DNA of 41,426 nt, taken from the IMG/VR virus record IMGVR_UViG_2711768022_000004; one strand, 5' to 3'. The first letter of the stretch is position 1; each line of letters opens with the position of its first letter. Source of the stretch: a virus (taxonomy: Duplodnaviria; Heunggongvirae; Uroviricota; Caudoviricetes). This document shows, piece after piece, positions 1 through 9,706 of the stretch. The notes beneath the pieces were generated by a model. That model made no database searches. It worked only from the letters and a program-made list of their open reading frames with translations, and had not been told where the DNA came from. A program made the translations under genes and the position numbers.

Positions 1-412
1 GTTTCACCTGCTGATTATCGGCATCACCCCACGCCATATGCGTTTGTGCTGTGACAGATTTTGCCAGCATGACTACCGGGGACAGGCGGCCCAGTGAGTC
101 GGGGCCAGCATTCCAGATACGACCATTCCATTCAAACGTGAACGGCTTCGCCTCCTGTTCTGTGCGCCATGCTTCAATTTCCTGACGTCTGGCCTCTCTG
201 GCCGCTTCCAGCATTTCTGGTGTCACAGTGAATGGGGCTATCTCACCCCATTTGCCACTTTGCAGTTCCTGCCAGATTCGCTGACCCGTCGGTGCGACAT
301 CATCAGCGGTGGCTGTGTAGGGGACTGCCTGGTCCCTGTCGTCAAAAAAAACGTCACAGTCTACTGCGCCACTTTCGGTATAACGGGGATTAATGATTTT
401 TTTAATTTCCAC
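1..412 (-). CDS. phage protein, partial (3' end lies beyond window start); directly downstream of a tail-fibre gene, possibly a tail-fibre assembly/chaperone protein
   Basis: Minus-strand open frame starting GTG 410-412 with GAGGA Shine-Dalgarno 7 nt upstream, 10 nt after the stop of the 423-1595 ORF; translation begins MEIKKIINPRYTESGAVDCDVFFDD; no confident family match. Confidence 0.4.
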   Translation of the reverse strand, partial: MEIKKIINPRYTESGAVDCDVFFDDRDQAVPYTATADDVAPTGQRIWQELQSGKWGEIAPFTVTPEMLEAAREARRQEIEAWRTEQEAKPFTFEWNGRIWNAGPDSLGRLSPVVMLAKSVTAQTHMAWGDADNQQVK

Positions 413-422
413 GGTGCATTCC

Positions 423-1595
423 TCACGATGTGCGAATAAAAAGCCCGGGCATTGCGCCAGAGACATGAGCATCCGGCACCCCGGACAGGGCGCTATATGA
501 CCCCGGTAATGAATGCTCTGAACATCCCGTAATGAAAAATTGTGGGGATGCTATATACGTTCCGGTGGGAGTACTGGGCACTGAAATCCCCACCGGTCCC
601 AGTCGTGAGCCTCTGTATGACTGCCCCCTGACAAGTCTGATGACTTTATCACCGTCAGCTTCTCCCTGGTACGCAGCAATAATCAGCCCGCCAATGTCAG
701 GGTCTCCCCATCTGTTGCAGACAGAGCTCGCCACGATTCTGTAAATAATATCTTCTGTGGTTATATTTATTTTCACCCAGCCAGTCAGTCTGGATATGGG
801 CCAGTAGCAGTAGCGGGTGTGATAAATGGGGCCGTTAATGCCGTAAAAAGTAAGGGATTTGGCTCTGTACCTCGGTTCTGTTGTCTCAGGGCGTGCATCA
901 GTCCACCGGATGCTGAGCACCCCTTCAAACCGTGTGTCGGGTATGATGATGTCGTAGGGGCCAGCAACGGAATATTCACCTGGCAGCGCATTCCTTACCC
1001 AGGCCAGGAAATCACTCTTAGTGTCAAAACGGATAACATCTTCAGGCAGAAAAGCACACCCAAAGCCGAATGCGCCGGGTATCGCCAGACGGCCTTTTGT
1101 CCGGTCGTAAATGTCGCTCTGTGCTTCCATCGTGGCCGCACTTTTCAGCCCCAGATTATCCCGGGACTTCTGTTGTGCCTTTTCGCCTGCTGCTGCGATT
1201 TCAGACAGATGGTTAGCCGTTTTCAGAGTGCCGGTCAGCGCAGCATCAATGTCATTTTTGGCCTGCTCTGCTGCGCGGGCATAACCTGCGGCTGCCGCCA
1301 CATCCTGCGCCGTCTGCTGTGCGTTTCCGGCTGCGGCCCCGGCGCTCTGCTGCGCCTGCGCCACCATTTCCTCAAAGCGTTTGACGACATCCGGTTTCAG
1401 GTCGCCCTCATCAGGAGCAATCAGAAAGTCATTCAGCGTGCCGGGCTTTGAGTCGTCGTATACAGCAATGTCGCCAACGTTGTACTCGTTGTGCCAGCCC
1501 GGTTTCAGATACACACCATATTTTCCAGTCCGCGCATGGAAACAGTATTCACCATCGTTTCCTGTCATCACATCAGCAACAGTGTGCATCACCAC
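423..1595 (-). CDS. phage tail fibre protein fragment, 5' end apparently truncated by the adjacent IS66 end
   Basis: 390-aa ORF with Ala/Gln-rich coiled-coil segment (AQAQQSAGAAAGNAQQTAQDVAAAAGYARAAEQAKNDIDAAL) typical of fibre shafts; listed start is GTG and the frame stays open upstream across the IS terminus at 1612. Confidence 0.5.
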   Translation of the reverse strand: MVMHTVADVMTGNDGEYCFHARTGKYGVYLKPGWHNEYNVGDIAVYDDSKPGTLNDFLIAPDEGDLKPDVVKRFEEMVAQAQQSAGAAAGNAQQTAQDVAAAAGYARAAEQAKNDIDAALTGTLKTANHLSEIAAAGEKAQQKSRDNLGLKSAATMEAQSDIYDRTKGRLAIPGAFGFGCAFLPEDVIRFDTKSDFLAWVRNALPGEYSVAGPYDIIIPDTRFEGVLSIRWTDARPETTEPRYRAKSLTFYGINGPIYHTRYCYWPISRLTGWVKINITTEDIIYRIVASSVCNRWGDPDIGGLIIAAYQGEADGDKVIRLVRGQSYRGSRLGPVGISVPSTPTGTYIASPQFFITGCSEHSLPGSYSALSGVPDAHVSGAMPGLFIRTS

Positions 1596-3934: not shown

Positions 3935-4189
3935 TTACATCATGGTACTGTCAGTTCCGGGCTGAGCCGGGTCTGGTTGCTCTGGCTGCGCGTCGGTTTT
4001 CGGCTCATTATCAGCATCACTGGCCGCAACTGCTGGCCCAATAAGTTTTGCCAGCACTTCATCAACGTAAGTGTCGATTTGTGCCTCAAAATCCTTGCGG
4101 ACCTGCGCTTTCAGCAACTTATTTACTTCACCGGAATACAGTGCCTGTTTTACCAGGTCTTCAGTGACGGTGCCTTTAATTTCTGGCAT
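3935..4189 (-). CDS. hypothetical small protein with acidic Pro/Gln-rich C-terminus
   Basis: 84-aa ORF with strong GGAGG Shine-Dalgarno (reverse complement of 4195-4199). Confidence 0.5.
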   Translation of the reverse strand: MPEIKGTVTEDLVKQALYSGEVNKLLKAQVRKDFEAQIDTYVDEVLAKLIGPAVAASDADNEPKTDAQPEQPDPAQPGTDSTMM

Positions 4190-4224
4190 GTATATCCTCC
4201 TTATGCGGGAATAAAGCCCTGCAA

Positions 4225-4407
4225 TCAGGGCTGGGTCGGGTCTTTTGGGAGCGGAGTTACCTGCGCTGTTTTACTGAGTTTTTCAGCTGCTGCGTCCTCA
4301 ATTTTGCGGCGAACATAATTTCTGATGGCCTTATAACCACCACTCACCAGATATAACGCACATACTGCCGTGCAGAAATACAATAAAATAAGCTGTAAAA
4401 ATGTCAT
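4225..4407 (-). CDS. small membrane protein (single predicted transmembrane helix followed by a charged tail)
   Basis: 60 aa from ATG 4405-4407: MTFLQLILLYFCTAVCALYLVSGGYKAIRNYVRRKIEDAAAEKL; GGGAGGG Shine-Dalgarno upstream. Confidence 0.5.
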   Translation of the reverse strand: MTFLQLILLYFCTAVCALYLVSGGYKAIRNYVRRKIEDAAAEKLSKTAQVTPLPKDPTQP

Positions 4408-4422
4408 TATCCCTCCCAATTA

Positions 4423-4449
4423 TTGACATGGTGTTGACACCGGTAATAT
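4423..4449 (+). promoter_or_regulatory. candidate sigma70-like promoter on the plus strand
   Basis: TTGACA at 4423-4428 (second TTGACA at 4434-4439) and TAATAT at 4444-4449; spacing 15 bp, suboptimal. Confidence 0.3.
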
Positions 4450-4503
4450 CTGTTAGGTAAAAAGGTGCACTGCATTTTTTGCTTTGGATATAACGATCTT
4501 TTT

Positions 4504-4544
4504 GCCGCCGGTTTCTTGTTTTCCCTTACCGGCGGCATTTTTTT
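4504..4544 (+). terminator. rho-independent terminator (plus-strand orientation)
   Basis: 9-bp GC-rich stem GCCGCCGGT / ACCGGCGGC around a 15-nt loop, followed by T7 run at 4538-4544. Confidence 0.6.
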
Positions 4545-4551
4545 ATCCTGC

Positions 4552-6606
4552 TTACGCGTTATTCACTTCCACCACGATACTGTCAATCAGTACCGGGTAA
4601 GTCGCATTTTTAGTGATATCGGTCACGCGCAACTTGTCTGCCGTAAACGTGCCGACCGGAGACTGCGACAGCATGAATGGTGTCCCGTCCTTACCATCAA
4701 TGACCGGCGTCACCTCAATACTGTTGTTACCGGCAAAACGGAAGCCCAGCGTATGCCATTCGTTATTAAATGCGCCGAATGACCCCAGCTTCGTGTTCTG
4801 CGCCGTGTTTCCTTTGTGATACATCACGTTAAGGTCTGTGGCATCGCTCTGTACGTAGAACGATGCCAGCAGGTTATGACCGGCATTTCCTTCCAGAGTA
4901 ACCCCTTGCGGCAGGGCAGAAACCGGCCAGTACAGCGCCAGTGCGTACTGATTAGCCGTAAGCGCGCCATCGAGTTTAAAACGACAACTGACAAGACCAC
5001 CTTTACCCAGCAGGTCCGCACCATTACCAGCATCATGCTCAAGGTACCAGGGGGCTCTTCCTGTTTCCTTGGTCAGTTTCATTGCCTTACCCCCGCTGGC
5101 TCCGGCATCATCCACGATTTGAGCCTTGCCACCTCCGGCAGCCCAACCCTGTGGTGTCAACCGTCCTTCAGACTCAGATGCCCGGTAAGCAAATAGCGTA
5201 CTCATCGTCGTGGTGTCTGCGGGTGGCGTGGACGGTTTTGATGGTGTATCAGGTGACGGCTTCTCATCCGGTGGTGTCACGGTCTGCCCACGCATCAGTT
5301 CAGCCGTGCGCCCTGCATGGAGCATAATAGCTGAGGCCAGACGGTCTGAAATGACGCCCCTGCGTGCCCATGAGCTGAAATGGCTGTCACGCTGTGTCGA
5401 AACAAAACTGCCCTGGGTTCGGGATGCTGCACCGTAATACCCGACAGCCACAATATCCGGGTCTTCCGCCGGAGCATTCGTTGGCGTGCTCTGTCCATTC
5501 TCATCCGTCAGGAACGGTACAAAGAAAATTTTCTGTGCTTCCTTGCCTTTGTAGCCACCGTATACTGCCTCATATTTATCGGTGCCAGCGTTTTTCCAGT
5601 AATACGTGGTATCACCGCAAATCCACGGCACCGTGGTGGCATTTCCACTCACGCACTGCGCAGCAAGCGGAGCCAGGTCAGTTCTGAACTGCTGAACCAT
5701 GGCCGTGAATAAACTATTATGCTGCTGGCTTCCTGAGGCAAGGTCTGCCTCTCCCTGCATCCAGACCACAGCCAGAAGTTTGTTTTTCGGGTTTTTCGCC
5801 AGCGCGACTTTGGTGCGGCTTACCAGGTCCTGATACAGAGGTTTACCGGCCCCCCAGCGTGAAGAATCAGCGGAAGCACCGCTGGCCTCACTGAATGAGC
5901 CGTCGGCTCCAGTGGTGAATGCTGACCCGCCACGACAACAGGGCACCAGAAGTATCCCGGCATTCTGTGGGATATAGGGAAGCAGTTTTTTGGCAATATG
6001 CAACCCCTGACCGACAGTCCCGTACTGGCCTTTTGCCAGATCAGCTTTCGGGTGGTTTATCCCGCTCATATCCTGAACATCATGCAGGCAGTGGTCTGCC
6101 GGAATGATGTCGTTGTATGTACACGACGTACCGTTGGGCGTTACCGTACTGCGGCGTGCCAGTTGCTTAATGCGTGGGTCCGGGCGGTCAAACGAATCCG
6201 GTAACGGCAGCCCCTCGCCGTAGGCCATGCCATTTGACTGACCCGCGAGAATGACAACAAAGTAATATTCCGGCTCTGAACTGCTGCCATTCGTGCTACC
6301 GGAAGGCCCGGCGTTATCCGGTGCATTCCAGTCGGAGGGCGTGAGCGTTCCGGCCACGTCAGATGTGATTGGAATGATGCCAGTCACGCCTGAACTGGTG
6401 ATTTCTGCACTGGGATTACCGGATACCGGCATTACCCATAATGGCTCTTTCGTGCTGAAGCGGATCACGCAGTCTGCGAAGGTGATCCCCCCTTTATTAC
6501 CCGAAGGGCGGAAAGGGCTTTCAATAAATGCCACCGTGCCACCGGCAACCTTGACTGAAAACTCTCCGGGCATGGCGGAGAGCATTTTCCACTTGGAGTC
6601 TGACAT
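4552..6606 (-). CDS. SASA/SGNH-type carbohydrate esterase-like protein (sialate O-acetylesterase-like), prophage cargo
   Basis: 684 aa; VVILAGQSNGMAYGEG resembles the GQSNM motif of sialate O-acetylesterase-type domains; no obvious signal peptide; sits between invertase and com-mom. Confidence 0.55.
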   Translation of the reverse strand: MSDSKWKMLSAMPGEFSVKVAGGTVAFIESPFRPSGNKGGITFADCVIRFSTKEPLWVMPVSGNPSAEITSSGVTGIIPITSDVAGTLTPSDWNAPDNAGPSGSTNGSSSEPEYYFVVILAGQSNGMAYGEGLPLPDSFDRPDPRIKQLARRSTVTPNGTSCTYNDIIPADHCLHDVQDMSGINHPKADLAKGQYGTVGQGLHIAKKLLPYIPQNAGILLVPCCRGGSAFTTGADGSFSEASGASADSSRWGAGKPLYQDLVSRTKVALAKNPKNKLLAVVWMQGEADLASGSQQHNSLFTAMVQQFRTDLAPLAAQCVSGNATTVPWICGDTTYYWKNAGTDKYEAVYGGYKGKEAQKIFFVPFLTDENGQSTPTNAPAEDPDIVAVGYYGAASRTQGSFVSTQRDSHFSSWARRGVISDRLASAIMLHAGRTAELMRGQTVTPPDEKPSPDTPSKPSTPPADTTTMSTLFAYRASESEGRLTPQGWAAGGGKAQIVDDAGASGGKAMKLTKETGRAPWYLEHDAGNGADLLGKGGLVSCRFKLDGALTANQYALALYWPVSALPQGVTLEGNAGHNLLASFYVQSDATDLNVMYHKGNTAQNTKLGSFGAFNNEWHTLGFRFAGNNSIEVTPVIDGKDGTPFMLSQSPVGTFTADKLRVTDITKNATYPVLIDSIVVEVNNA

Positions 6607-6682
6607 CGTCTTTTCTGCCTGTTTCTGAATTAAACAGAGTCAGAATAGCGACCGCTGAAAAATATGTGTTTTGCGGAAATTC

Positions 6683-6711
6683 AAAAAAGCGTCACGGTAC
6701 TTTTGGTGACG
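6683..6711 (-). terminator. rho-independent terminator overlapping the invertase stop codon
   Basis: On the minus strand, stem CGTCAC / GTGACG with 10-nt loop followed by CTTTTTT; invertase stop codon lies inside the stem. Confidence 0.5.
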
Positions 6712-7258
6712 GAGCTGGTGAGGCAGGAAAATAACGATAAAGGGTGGAAAGGCCAATATCAAATATCAGTGCGATTTGTTTACGGGACTCGCCATTAGCC
6801 AGCAAACGGGCGATTTGCTCCCGCTCTTTCTCTGTCAGTTTCTGAGGTCTGCCGCCATGACGCCCCTGAGCACGGGCAGCAGCAAGACCCGCGCGTGTAC
6901 GTTCAATAATGAGTTCCCGCTCCATTTCCGCCAGCGCGCCCATTATATGGAAAAAGAAACGTCCCATGGGAGTGGATGTATCAATATTGTCCGTAATGCT
7001 GCGGAAGTTAACGCCGCGTTGCCGGAGTTCTTCTGTTAAAAGGACAAGGTGCTGCATACTGCGTCCAAGGCGATCCAGTTTCCAGACCAGCAGGGTATCC
7101 CCTGGCCGGAGTCGCTTTAATGCGCGTTTAAGTCCGGGACGCTCCCTTGTCTTACCGCTTATTCTGTCTTCGAAAAACAGCTCACATCCTGCACATTCCA
7201 GCGCATTTCTTTGTAGCGCCGTATTCTGGTCATTTGTTGACACCCTGATATACCCAAT
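6692..7258 (-). CDS. gin: serine DNA invertase (Gin/Pin/Cin/Hin family), 5' end runs into the assembly gap
   Basis: Translation IGYIRVSTNDQNTALQRNAL...GDTLLVWKLDRLGRSMQHL...PMGRFFFHIMGALAEMERELIIERT is near-identical in pattern to Gin; frame continues upstream of the listed GTG start into the N-run. Confidence 0.85.
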   Translation of the reverse strand: MGYIRVSTNDQNTALQRNALECAGCELFFEDRISGKTRERPGLKRALKRLRPGDTLLVWKLDRLGRSMQHLVLLTEELRQRGVNFRSITDNIDTSTPMGRFFFHIMGALAEMERELIIERTRAGLAAARAQGRHGGRPQKLTEKEREQIARLLANGESRKQIALIFDIGLSTLYRYFPASPAPSPKVP

Positions 7259-7488
7259 NNNNNNNNNNNNNNNNNNNNNNNNNNNNNNNNNNNNNNNNNN
7301 NNNNNNNNNNNNNNNNNNNNNNNNNNNNNNNNNNNNNNNNNNNNNNNNNNNNNNNNNNNNNNNNNNNNNNNNNNNNNNNNNNNNNNNNNNNNNNNNNNNN
7401 NNNNNNNNNNNNNNNNNNNNNNNNNNNNNNNNNNNNNNNNNNNNNNNNNNNNNNNNNNNNNNNNNNNNNNNNNNNNNNNNNNNNNNNN
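7259..7488. other. assembly gap (run of 230 N); true length unknown
   Basis: Literal N characters in the sequence. Confidence 0.99.
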
Positions 7489-7489
7489 G

Positions 7490-7660
7490 GGAGCAGAGAA
7501 CAGGCAGGTAATGTACGGTGGGGCATATTACTCTGCGTACGGTAATGTTATGGCAGGCCTGCAGATTGACAGTAAAGTTGATGCTTCAAACGATTTTATA
7601 GCATTCAGACCCCTGCAAAAATTAGTCGGAGGTACATGGATTACGGTATCTCAGTTATAA
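7490..7660 (+). CDS. alternative tail-fibre variable C-terminal segment (Sv'-like), 5' part lost in the gap
   Basis: Plus-strand frame ending ...FRPLQKLVGGTWITVSQL at 7660; ending resembles the C-terminus of the minus-strand fibre (...[10 protein letters not shown]); followed by a tfa gene on the same strand. Confidence 0.6.
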   Translation, partial: GAENRQVMYGGAYYSAYGNVMAGLQIDSKVDASNDFIAFRPLQKLVGGTWITVSQL

Positions 7661-7711
7661 ATAGTCAGTAAATAATATATTTTAAAACAGATTTATTTCC
7701 AGGAGGATTTT

Positions 7712-8233
7712 ATGGAACTAAAAAATATAACCCGTTATTATCCTGAAAATATGCCATATGGTAATAATGTTCAGTATTTCCAGAGTGAAGATGGTAAGGA
7801 TTTCTACGAATCCCTGCCATTATTCACCAAAAAATATAAACTTTGCATAACACCTGACAGCGGCGTTATCTGCTCAATATCACAGGACGCCTCGGCGCTG
7901 TATCCTGCGGGGTTTTCTGTGGTTGAGGTCGATGAACTCCCTGAAGGCACGGATATTTCAGGAAACTGGAAGTTTGATAATGGCATAATCTCCCGTATTC
8001 CGGTTAACTACGCAAGAAAACTGGAAGCAATGCGCCAGTCATATCTTAATCAGGCATATGAAAAAATTAATGACTGGAGAACGGAGCTACAACTGGGCAC
8101 CATCAGCGATGAAGACAGAGCAGCACTTACCCAATGGATGGCATACATCAGTCAGGTGAAGAAAATGGAACTACCCGCCATTAAAACAGAAGCTGAATTT
8201 AACGCCATTAAATGGCCTGAGCAGCCACAGTAA
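7712..8233 (+). CDS. tail-fibre assembly protein (P2 G / Mu U-like)
   Basis: 173 aa; DASALYPAGFSVVEVDELPEG and the C-terminal ISDEDRAALTQWMAYISQV region resemble P2 gpG-type chaperones; AGGAGG Shine-Dalgarno. Confidence 0.8.
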   Translation: MELKNITRYYPENMPYGNNVQYFQSEDGKDFYESLPLFTKKYKLCITPDSGVICSISQDASALYPAGFSVVEVDELPEGTDISGNWKFDNGIISRIPVNYARKLEAMRQSYLNQAYEKINDWRTELQLGTISDEDRAALTQWMAYISQVKKMELPAIKTEAEFNAIKWPEQPQ

Positions 8234-8236
8234 TAA

Positions 8237-8256
8237 AGAAGGCCGGAAGGCCTTCT
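8237..8256. terminator. hairpin between convergent tfa and fibre genes (possible bidirectional terminator)
   Basis: AGAAGGCC-GGAA-GGCCTTCT perfect 8-bp stem in the 31-bp gap between the two stop codons; flanking U-runs are weak. Confidence 0.4.
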
Positions 8257-8264
8257 GAATATCA

Positions 8265-9146
8265 TTATATACTTGCAGCCGTCACCCATGCTCCATTTAA
8301 CAGATACTGCAACGGCCGGTAATACACGCCGCCGACGTTATCTGCCGTATTCTTACCGACATCCTGTACTTTAATTCCGGTAAGAACATTGCCGCCCCCC
8401 AGATTCAGATCCCAGCTTTCCCATGTTCCGGGCATATGTGCGGTCACCGACCCCAGTCTTATGGCGGTTACTGTTCCTGATGAGATAGTGATATCCTGCG
8501 TCCCGTCAAAGGGAACACCATTAATTGTGTGGGCATTTGCCAGCCTGTTCGCGGCAACGGCGGTGCCGTCCGATGGCAGGGCATTCGCCGCCCTGTTTAC
8601 CGTTTCCCGTAAACCGACGTTATCGATAAAAGCCCCTTTATCCGGAATGTCTGCGCCGTTCTGCTCCCTGCGCAGGTAACGGTTATCACCTTCGCTTTTG
8701 CTGTAAACATCCAGATTATTACGGGCGGTTCCCTTATTCTCCAGGTCGGCGAGATTCTGATCCTTCGCCAGGGCATTAACGTCAGCGGGACCAAGACTGT
8801 TTTTTGTGGCAAGCGTCCCCAGACCAAGATAACCACGGGCCAGACGCTGGGCCTCCGCACCGGCATCAGCAATTTCTTTCAGGTTATTTTTCCGGGAAAA
8901 GGCATTCGCAGCGATAATGGCTTTAATGGACAGCGTAAGCTGGTTTAACTGCGCCTTATCCGGCTGAATACTGGCTTCAGCCAGAATATTCAGCAGTTCG
9001 GCCTGGAGAATATTCAGCCAGTCCTGACCAATCCAGCTGATACCTTTTTGTCCGTCACCTTCGGTAAACCAGGTGGTGGTATTACTCTGCGCCGGTGCCA
9101 GCGCAGGCATATTCGCCACGCCGGAATTATTATCAACATGAAACAT
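8265..9146 (-). CDS. tail fibre protein (constant N-terminal part plus currently expressed variable C-terminal part)
   Basis: 293 aa; N-terminus [18 protein letters not shown]...[30 protein letters not shown] typical of Mu S / P2 H-type fibres; contains the gix-like site. Confidence 0.8.
8604..8629. other. gix/hix-like crossover site for the serine invertase, inside the fibre gene
   Basis: TTCCCGTAAACC-GA-CGTTATCGATAA: two 12-bp half-sites in inverted orientation around a 2-bp core, resembling gix (TTCCTGTAAACCGAGGTTTTGGATAA, from memory); falls at fibre codon about 173. Confidence 0.55.
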
Positions 9147-9706
9147 TAAATAGTCTCCTCTTCATGGCTGTTTGCATAAACGTAAATAAACGTCTGCCAT
9201 GCAGGCTTATAACGGTTCAGAATACATTCCAGCGCACCGCCTTCATAAATACGCAGCGGCGTGAGAATATCATCCAGCACATTCATATTCCGGTAGCCGG
9301 TTTCACTGTTAATCGTGACAATACTGACCCACTGCGAATCCGGTGAGGGCTGAATGTCAATCTGATAACCAAACTCCGCCGCAAACCGGATATAAAATTC
9401 ACGGTTCAGCGAGGGCTTCATCCGGTATTTATTTCCGGCATAACGCTGTCGCTCCGTGAGGGTGGCTCCGGCCATATCACACTCGGGAAGCCCGAGATAA
9501 CGCTCCCAGTCTTCCAGCAGCAGGCGCGACGTGTCAGGGAAACGCTCGGCAAGCAGCTGTTTACCCGTCCAGGATACACGCGCTGTCGAATGACTGAGGC
9601 CCAGACATAATGATGCCAGTACGGATGACGGACGCTTGTCCCATGCCAGCCCGTCAGGCAGTAACTGCAACAGGGCGCGCTGATGCGGGGTCAGGGTTAC
9701 AGCCAT
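9146..9706 (-). CDS. tail/baseplate protein (Mu gp48-like)
   Basis: 186 aa; position between baseplate J-like gene and tail fibre. Confidence 0.55.

Follow-up and report, generated by a model that had tools for sequence, protein, structure and literature searches.

One chaperone gene for two tail-fibre tips: a Gin-type invertible segment in a Mu-like prophage lineage of Escherichia coli

Introduction

The stretch of DNA analyzed in this study (41,426 nucleotides, IMG/VR virus record IMGVR_UViG_2711768022_000004; hereafter the window) contains a Mu-like prophage of Escherichia coli with a tail-fibre switch related to the G segment of phage Mu, in which a 1.32-kb invertible segment holds two alternative fibre tips and a single gene for a tail-fibre assembly (Tfa) chaperone. 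Comparison with complete genomes revealed that this switch inverts in nature, with the exchange taking place at the core of its gix sites, and that the one-chaperone layout is old and conserved across the lineage. We consider it very probable that the element is a Mu-G-like host-range switch, a reading compatible with more than one route by which the fibre lacking a chaperone could fold.

Tail-fibre tips and Tfa chaperones are parts that are swapped to retarget phages and tailocins, and the working rule in doing so is that each Mu/P2-type tip needs its own adjacent chaperone. The prophage lineage described herein as a whole keeps a functional, selected tip without an adjacent chaperone, and this is the state expressed in most lysogens. 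If the tip folds by itself, it would be useful for engineering; if a generalist chaperone is expressed independently of the switch, the annotation of such segments would have to be read differently. The switch also explains a recurring annotation artefact, namely tail proteins recorded as 'partial' or a fibre gene missed altogether, and may in addition explain the assembly gap of the window. The locus itself is already known, being annotated in hundreds of genomes, and the invertibility of its counterpart in Sp18, the Mu-like prophage of E. coli O157:H7 Sakai, was noted earlier; in the searchable literature we found no discussion of a one-chaperone invertible segment, of its conservation, or of selection on the chaperone-less tip.

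Results

Two gix sites and inversion of the segment

The fibre gene of the window (8265..9146, - strand), an open reading frame (ORF) of 293 aa in the current assembly, consists of a constant part designated Sc (aa 1-176) and a variable tip of 117 aa designated N1 (8265..8615, -), which belongs to the chaperone-less class described below. The first-pass annotation, which was made from the letters of the window, had located a 26-bp dyad-symmetric gix-like site at about codon 173 of this ORF, at the expected junction of the constant and variable parts. The site was indeed present at 8604..8629 (TTCCCGTAAACCGACGTTATCGATAA; inner half-site 8604-8615, core GA 8616-8617, outer half-site 8618-8629) and was identical at 22 of 26 positions to each of the Mu gix sites. 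Its GA core falls in codon Val177, close enough to the position predicted, and the site occupies the homologous position in both fibre genes (...FIDN/VGLRETVN here, ...FIQN/LGLQETVN in Mu, with the slash marking the junction). The dyad symmetry proved to be partial (7/12 half-site positions), as is usual among gix sites. While the loose gix consensus was by itself non-significant in the window (2 matches vs 1.6 expected), TTCCCGTAAACCGACGTTATCGATAA was unique in it, with 0 chance matches expected at up to 3 mismatches.

Next to the segment lies the gene for a Gin-type serine DNA invertase of 190 aa (gin; 6692..7258, -), codons 1-2 of which are inside a run of N in the assembly. The protein possesses a Resolvase domain (PF00239, E 2e-51) and a C-terminal HTH_7 domain (PF02796, E 5e-15) in Pfam searches, and is 74% identical to Mu Gin, the active-site stretch MLIGY.RVSTNDQ included. 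The 5' part of gin, which in Mu contains the Fis-dependent recombinational enhancer, aligned with that of Mu gin without large gaps (mean column identity 74% over 4 sequences); Fis sites were not identified in it.

The N run itself (7259..7488, 230 N) was closed by a megablast search against complete E. coli genomes, in which 18 genomes matched at 99% identity or more and covered both sides of the run, the aligned flanks of 7 of them being 100% identical to the window. In these seven flank-identical genomes, the run corresponds to 273 bp (L001 4660-4932), composed of gin codons 1-2, a 65-bp spacer, a second gix site, and the first 188 nt of T1, the alternative tip; the stretch holds no gene and has no room for one. 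As the first-pass annotation had anticipated, the second gix site (TTCCTGAAAACCTCGGTTTACGGGAA, L001 4731-4756), located 65 bp upstream of gin, is inverted relative to the first, with the core TC on this strand and an inner half-site identical to that of 8604-8629. The segment is thus bounded, as in the Gin/Hin/Cin/Pin systems, by two 26-bp sites in inverted orientation with identical 2-bp cores. The sites are accompanied by inverted-repeat arms that encode the shared start of both tips; a repeat search on L001 (window = L001 + 2556) placed the fibre-side arm at 8476..8624 (86 nt at 93% plus 50 nt at 84%) and the other arm inside the N run.

When the 1.32-kb segment was flipped in silico, the product was an in-frame fibre of 296 aa followed after 51 nt by tfa, so that both fibre forms (293 aa and 296 aa) are in frame, and both were seen in genomes. 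The flipped configuration was found at 99.7-99.9% identity over the full length in 4 complete genomes, and at lower identity in 2 more. Counted by the tip joined to the constant part (N or T), the orientation was N in 18 genomes and T in 6 genomes of the window's group, and N in 182 genomes and T in 25 genomes of the Sp18 group (O157 relatives). The use of these ratios as evidence of function was dropped, since clonal sampling and site asymmetry suffice to explain them.

The position of the exchange was delimited with two Korean stool isolates, FORC_029 and NCCP 13983, the chromosomes of which (5,189,944 and 5,189,943 bp, respectively) carry the segment in opposite orientations. When the FORC_029 locus was inverted in silico at both cores, it matched that of NCCP 13983 with 0 mismatches over 8,644 bp. 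Moving inward from the core, the first difference between the repeat arms comes at 18 nt, and moving outward the flanks already diverge at 1 nt; the exchange was therefore confined to the gix site, that is, to the core and at most 17 nt. In O157 genomes, the base that ends the inner half-site is polymorphic, and its variants travel with the segment, which bounds the exchange within 11 nt. General homologous recombination across the inverted repeats of about 150 bp, rather than the action of the invertase, is therefore an extremely improbable source of the inversions despite the length of the repeat arms, since such an exchange would be spread over the 150-nt repeat, whereas the one observed did not leave the 26-bp site, where it took in the 2-bp core and no more than 17 nt, and since the Gin homologue is intact and the cores match.

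In this mechanism, the Gin-type invertase encoded just outside the 1.32-kb segment would act on the two inverted 26-bp gix sites, and inversion at the 2-bp core joins the constant part (aa 1-176) either to N1 (117 aa, the current state) or to T1 (120 aa). Of the two, T1 alone has tfa behind it; in the current orientation, the late transcript would end at a hairpin past the N1 stop codon, with tfa lying on the opposite strand.

Several observations on the sites and their copies may be added. The N run covers one inverted-repeat arm and about 75 bp on either side, a pattern expected from a short-read assembly breaking at the repeat or from the presence of both orientations in the culture, deliberate masking being another possibility. 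In most Sp18-type copies, the gin-side gix site is one A short in its outer half-site (CCCTGAAACC vs CCTGAAAACC; L002 3100-3125, L020 2200-2225, and others), and O157 genomes still show both orientations despite this shortening. Three strains, DLI.5a (L104), TOE17 and AST46, appeared on both orientation lists, apparently with one prophage (or tail-end) copy each way; in the flipped copy of DLI.5a, gin is frameshifted and a deletion fuses gp48 to the lysis region.

A single tfa gene in all members of the lineage

The sole Tfa gene of the segment (tfa; 7712..8233, +; 173 aa) points the same way as the silent alternative tip T1 (S'v), whose 3' part is visible at 7489..7660 (+) and whose complete form has 120 aa. 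The tip and tfa are separated by an AT-rich spacer of 51 nt containing AGGAGG (7661..7711, +), and on the other side the converging stop codons of tfa and the fibre gene are 31 nt apart (8234..8264), as read from the sequence. Within this latter spacer, a G+C-rich hairpin with an 8-bp stem (8237-8256; AGAAGGCC-(4-nt loop)-GGCCTTCT) obtained a terminator-like score on the fibre strand and looks like a terminator of the fibre transcript. The first-pass annotation had described a second fibre end reaching 7660, a chaperone gene, a Gin-family invertase, and a fibre that ends at 8265 facing the tfa stop across a 31-bp hairpin spacer, all of which were found in place. The 173-aa protein matched Caudo_TAP (PF02413) with an E of 5e-19 and 69 bits against a cut-off of 22, phrog_136, and the Mu U protein (5yvq_B) with an E of 4e-16. 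These matches assign it to the Tfa family, for which a chaperone role in the folding of the tip encoded upstream is predicted.

Throughout the window, a tblastn search with four Tfa proteins and a hidden Markov model search over the six-frame ORFs detected no other tfa inside the prophage. The arrangement by which the Mu G segment is recognized, with a tfa of its own for each tip (S-U and S'-U'), is thus absent, and the gene at 7712-8233 is the only one, in keeping with the original description of one chaperone gene. An ORF of the DUF4376 family (2-412, -), the only other hit of these searches, was considered as a second chaperone gene of the switch and rejected, as it belongs to the remnant of a neighbouring prophage beyond mom. 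The first-pass annotation had named three outcomes that would speak against it, that is, no inverted copy of the site in the closed gap, no reads supporting the flipped orientation, and a second chaperone gene in the gap; none of them was encountered, the orientation being judged here from complete genomes.

The layout stood as it had been described, but it turned out not to be peculiar to the window, being standard in the Mu-like lineage of E. coli and Citrobacter that includes Sp18. All of the 11 annotated E. coli loci, among them a Mu-like insert in an Stx phage record, have one tfa; their identities range over 77-100% for gin and 71-100% for the constant part. The same layout was found in 14 IMG/VR contigs and in a prophage of Citrobacter braakii, the latter being the one informative locus among 8 returned by a contig scan with the fibre protein as the query. 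About 4% of complete E. coli genomes, O157:H7 included, carry this lineage. In E. coli the class of a tip is strictly bound to its slot: the tfa-less slot always holds N1 (this window) or N2, which are related classes with the common motif GI.VQD.G..(S/T)ADN.GGVYYRP.Q, while the tfa-linked slot holds T1 (the silent tip of this window), T2 or T3, the last of which resembles the Mu S tip.

Selection on the tips was assessed from the ratio of nonsynonymous to synonymous substitution rates (dN/dS). The variable parts of the N tips gave values of 0.08-0.16 at dS 0.45-1.2 (0.08-0.11 for N1 against diverged copies), which were indistinguishable from those of the T tips (0.09-0.14), and no N tip was disrupted or frameshifted in 25 loci. 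The low dN/dS together with the lack of disrupted copies indicates that the chaperone-less tips are maintained as working genes. The statement of the first-pass annotation that the currently expressed fibre has no cognate chaperone in cis holds, but as a structural fact and no evidence of a defect; purifying selection acts on the N tip, and more genomes have the N orientation than the T orientation.

Natural deletion derivatives were noticed in E. coli M3 (L003 2507-2812) and also in M1, M18 and CI5, which have lost the T tip and all but the last codons of gin; the fibre of these strains is fixed in the N orientation, and tfa is intact and still has its leader. As for annotation, RefSeq misses the intact 295-aa T-orientation fibre in O157:H7 ECP19-198 (L002 4127-5014), and silent tips are labelled therein as partial pseudogenes or short 'tail fiber proteins' (also L001 4730-5104).

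Discussion

Possible routes of maturation of the fibre without an adjacent chaperone

How an N-class tip could mature was considered under four readings. The one we place first, tentatively, is that these tips do so without the Tfa of the segment, having become self-sufficient; taken jointly, a self-sufficient tip or help in trans has about an even chance. On either of these, the switch would toggle between a Tfa-assisted, possibly Tfa-capped, fibre and a bare one. The more specific proposal, a toggle between a Tfa-dependent and a bare fibre in which the bare tip class is chaperone-independent even though homologous tips outside the lineage keep a chaperone, is possible, if doubtful. If it is true, N1 and N2 would be natural examples of Mu/P2-type fibre tips that fold alone, and the Tfa of this lineage would be more of an exchangeable adhesin module than a cognate folding factor.

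Several points weigh against this picture. With regard to the switch as such, the second gix site is known from identical genomes, and the window itself has N there. With regard to selection, some of the divergence on which the dN/dS values are based may stem from other phages and have been imported by recombination. The survey of N-like tips, for which IMG/VR was searched with an alignment of the N tips, showed that outside the lineage (tips 47-57% identical) all 65 loci that could be evaluated have a tfa on the same strand 4-22 nt behind the tip; these loci contain one or two tfa genes resembling Mu U or U', and many adjoin a gin homologue. By association, an N-type tip would normally need a chaperone. 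In Citrobacter, moreover, the N-like tip is the tfa-linked one, so that the relation of slot and class is reversed. The tfa of the lineage is preceded by 51-120 nt of non-coding sequence, as compared with 2 nt in Mu and 4-22 nt in the 65 other loci, and the long spacer leaves room for separate expression signals. Finally, the N-terminal half of Tfa is 68-100% identical across the three unrelated T tips T1, T2 and T3, whereas identity drops to 45% in the C-terminal half; synonymous sites are saturated in the one half as in the other. The N-terminal half of Mu Tfa is the fibre-binding domain, and in the usual description of Tfa proteins it is this N domain that varies while the C domain is conserved (PMC9608196); the present lineage shows the reverse. 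This pattern of conservation suggests a generalist chaperone able to serve the N tips too.

The main alternative to self-sufficiency is accordingly that one generalist Tfa, made in both orientations from signals of its own in the long spacer, folds the N and T fibres alike, possibly by binding the fibre immediately before the tip, in a part that the inverted repeat keeps alike in both forms. We regard this as a real but rather unlikely possibility. Apart from the conserved N-terminal domain and drifting C-terminal domain of Tfa, the length of the spacer, the constant company of a cis tfa for N-like tips elsewhere, and the reversal in Citrobacter, it is favoured by the free reshuffling of tips and tfa genes, as a T1 copy 99% identical stands before a tfa with just 65% identity, and T3 occurs together with either type of tfa. 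It is also favoured by a leader of about 85 nt that stands behind different tips and is retained, with an intact tfa, in the derivatives that have lost gin and the T tip.

Searches for such signals, on the other hand, argue against it. Consensus scans in three lineages found no sigma-70-like promoter on the tfa strand upstream of tfa, comparison by eye with the Mu Plys, PI and Pmom regions found no motif resembling a Mu late (C-dependent) promoter, and the gin-gix spacers of the two lineage types showed no obvious common inward-facing promoter, although these searches fall short of proof against tfa expression in the N orientation. Furthermore, the T1, T2 and T3 modules have spacers that show no relationship to one another, and the silent S'/U' pair of Mu is not expressed.

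The leader of about 85 nt (...TGAAATATGCGTTATTTCAGACAA..TTGCCTGTATATGGCGATAGTATTATTCCTGTTTTTATCATTGATTTACATGGTGATGTTT) is common to L004 3500-3599, L016, L017, L019, L021 and L003, in which it precedes tfa genes of both types and follows T2b, T3 or no tip at all; two small hairpins and a TATCAT occur in it, with no -35 element.

That the N tips borrow Tfa from other prophages in the same cell is unlikely in our estimation. There are many tfa genes in E. coli genomes, the remnant next to this very prophage carries a DUF4376 tfa-like ORF and a side-tail-fibre gene (window 2-1595), and cross-complementation among Tfa proteins of different phages is established. Reliance on silent genes of unrelated prophages would, however, be unreliable for a phage that moves between hosts, and long purifying selection in many backgrounds argues for a more dependable route.

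Less likely still is that the N orientation is non-productive, the cognate chaperone having been lost and the fibres misfolding, so that the switch would be half-decayed or would turn infectivity ON and OFF: even though the layout, with 31 nt between the stop codons, has the appearance of Mu U having been cleanly deleted, and homologous tips elsewhere have a Tfa, the N tips show dN/dS of about 0.1 over dS of up to about 1.2 and no frameshifts in the 25 loci, the layout is common to deeply diverged copies and Citrobacter, and N is the commoner state (182 vs 25 and 18 vs 6).

Comparison with related invertible segments

The element passes the tests for Gin-type inversion that concern the invertase, the paired sites and the occurrence of both orientations, and has the fibre layout of the Mu G segment, minus a chaperone for each tip. 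Its genes are arranged in the same order and directions as in Mu (Sc, then Sv-U / U'-S'v, then gin), with com and mom downstream, the order gp46-gp47-gp48-fibre...gin...com-mom being common to both. The fibre N-termini are homologous (E 1e-46), the Gin proteins are 74% identical, and the gix sites agree at 22 of 26 positions at the same codon position of the fibre gene. Mu differs in having two tfa genes rather than one, a segment of about 3 kb rather than 1.32 kb, and a gap of 2 nt rather than 51 nt between tip and tfa. Its fibre has 504 aa, as against 293-296 aa here, where the shaft is missing, and a cassette of esterase, DUF1378 and DUF826 genes between gin and com is present here only. 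The inverted repeat of Mu is given as 34 bp (PMC4406740), whereas that of the present element is about 150 nt long.

Sp18 and its relatives belong to the same lineage and share the one-tfa layout (L002, L020), but their tips are N2/T2 instead of N1/T1, their tfa and gin are 61% and 78% identical to those of the window, respectively, and their gin-side gix site is one base short. The 2009 report on Sp18 called its invertible region for host specificity 'distinct from those of Mu' and described the prophage as packaging DNA and making Mu-like particles (PMC2669165); the text available to us contained no discussion of the chaperone asymmetry.

The C segment of P1 with Cin, the P segment of e14 with Pin, and the P2-/P1-like segments in IMG/VR likewise have a Gin-family invertase beside alternative tips, some of which are 47-57% identical to N1, but every tip in them has its own tfa within 4-22 nt (65/65 loci). 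Citrobacter braakii ATCC 51113 (L005) resembles the window in having a fibre gene (6001-7419), a converging tfa (7480-8169), a silent tip and gin, with one tfa in all, and differs in the sizes of the fibre (472 aa) and Tfa (229 aa) and in the N-like tip that occupies its tfa-linked slot.

Fibre homology and neighbouring genes

In a search against solved structures, fibre residues 1-191 matched residues 1-184 of Mu S (E about 1e-46), and the last ~70 residues matched the Mu S and S' tips weakly; the match to the phiTE short tail fibre in the PDB was uninformative on the question of the chaperone. The protein as a whole was assigned to phrog_1833, tail fibre (E 7e-141). As in Mu, the fibre gene is immediately preceded by a gene for a Mu gp48-type baseplate wedge protein of the YmfQ family (9146..9706, -). 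The annotation of an identical E. coli locus and Pfam searches further revealed a Mu-type late region around the switch (gp45, gp46, gp47, gp48 and N), with com and mom downstream. An antisense ORF within tfa (7804-7986, 60 aa) was unsupported as a gene.

Between gin and com/mom, where Mu has nothing, there is a cassette of three genes (3935-6606, -) encoding a 684-aa protein with a sialate O-acetylesterase (SASA) domain and DUF6645, followed by DUF1378 and DUF826 proteins. The cassette was found in all relatives examined, and it resembles the cassette with the NanS-p esterase that Stx phages carry downstream of stx. Past the mom end, the window contains the remnant of another prophage (2-2107, -), made up of the DUF4376 tfa-like ORF (2-412, -), which runs off the edge of the window, a gene for a side tail fibre (phage_tail_N, 423-1595) and, at 1649-2107, the C-terminal part of an IS66 transposase.

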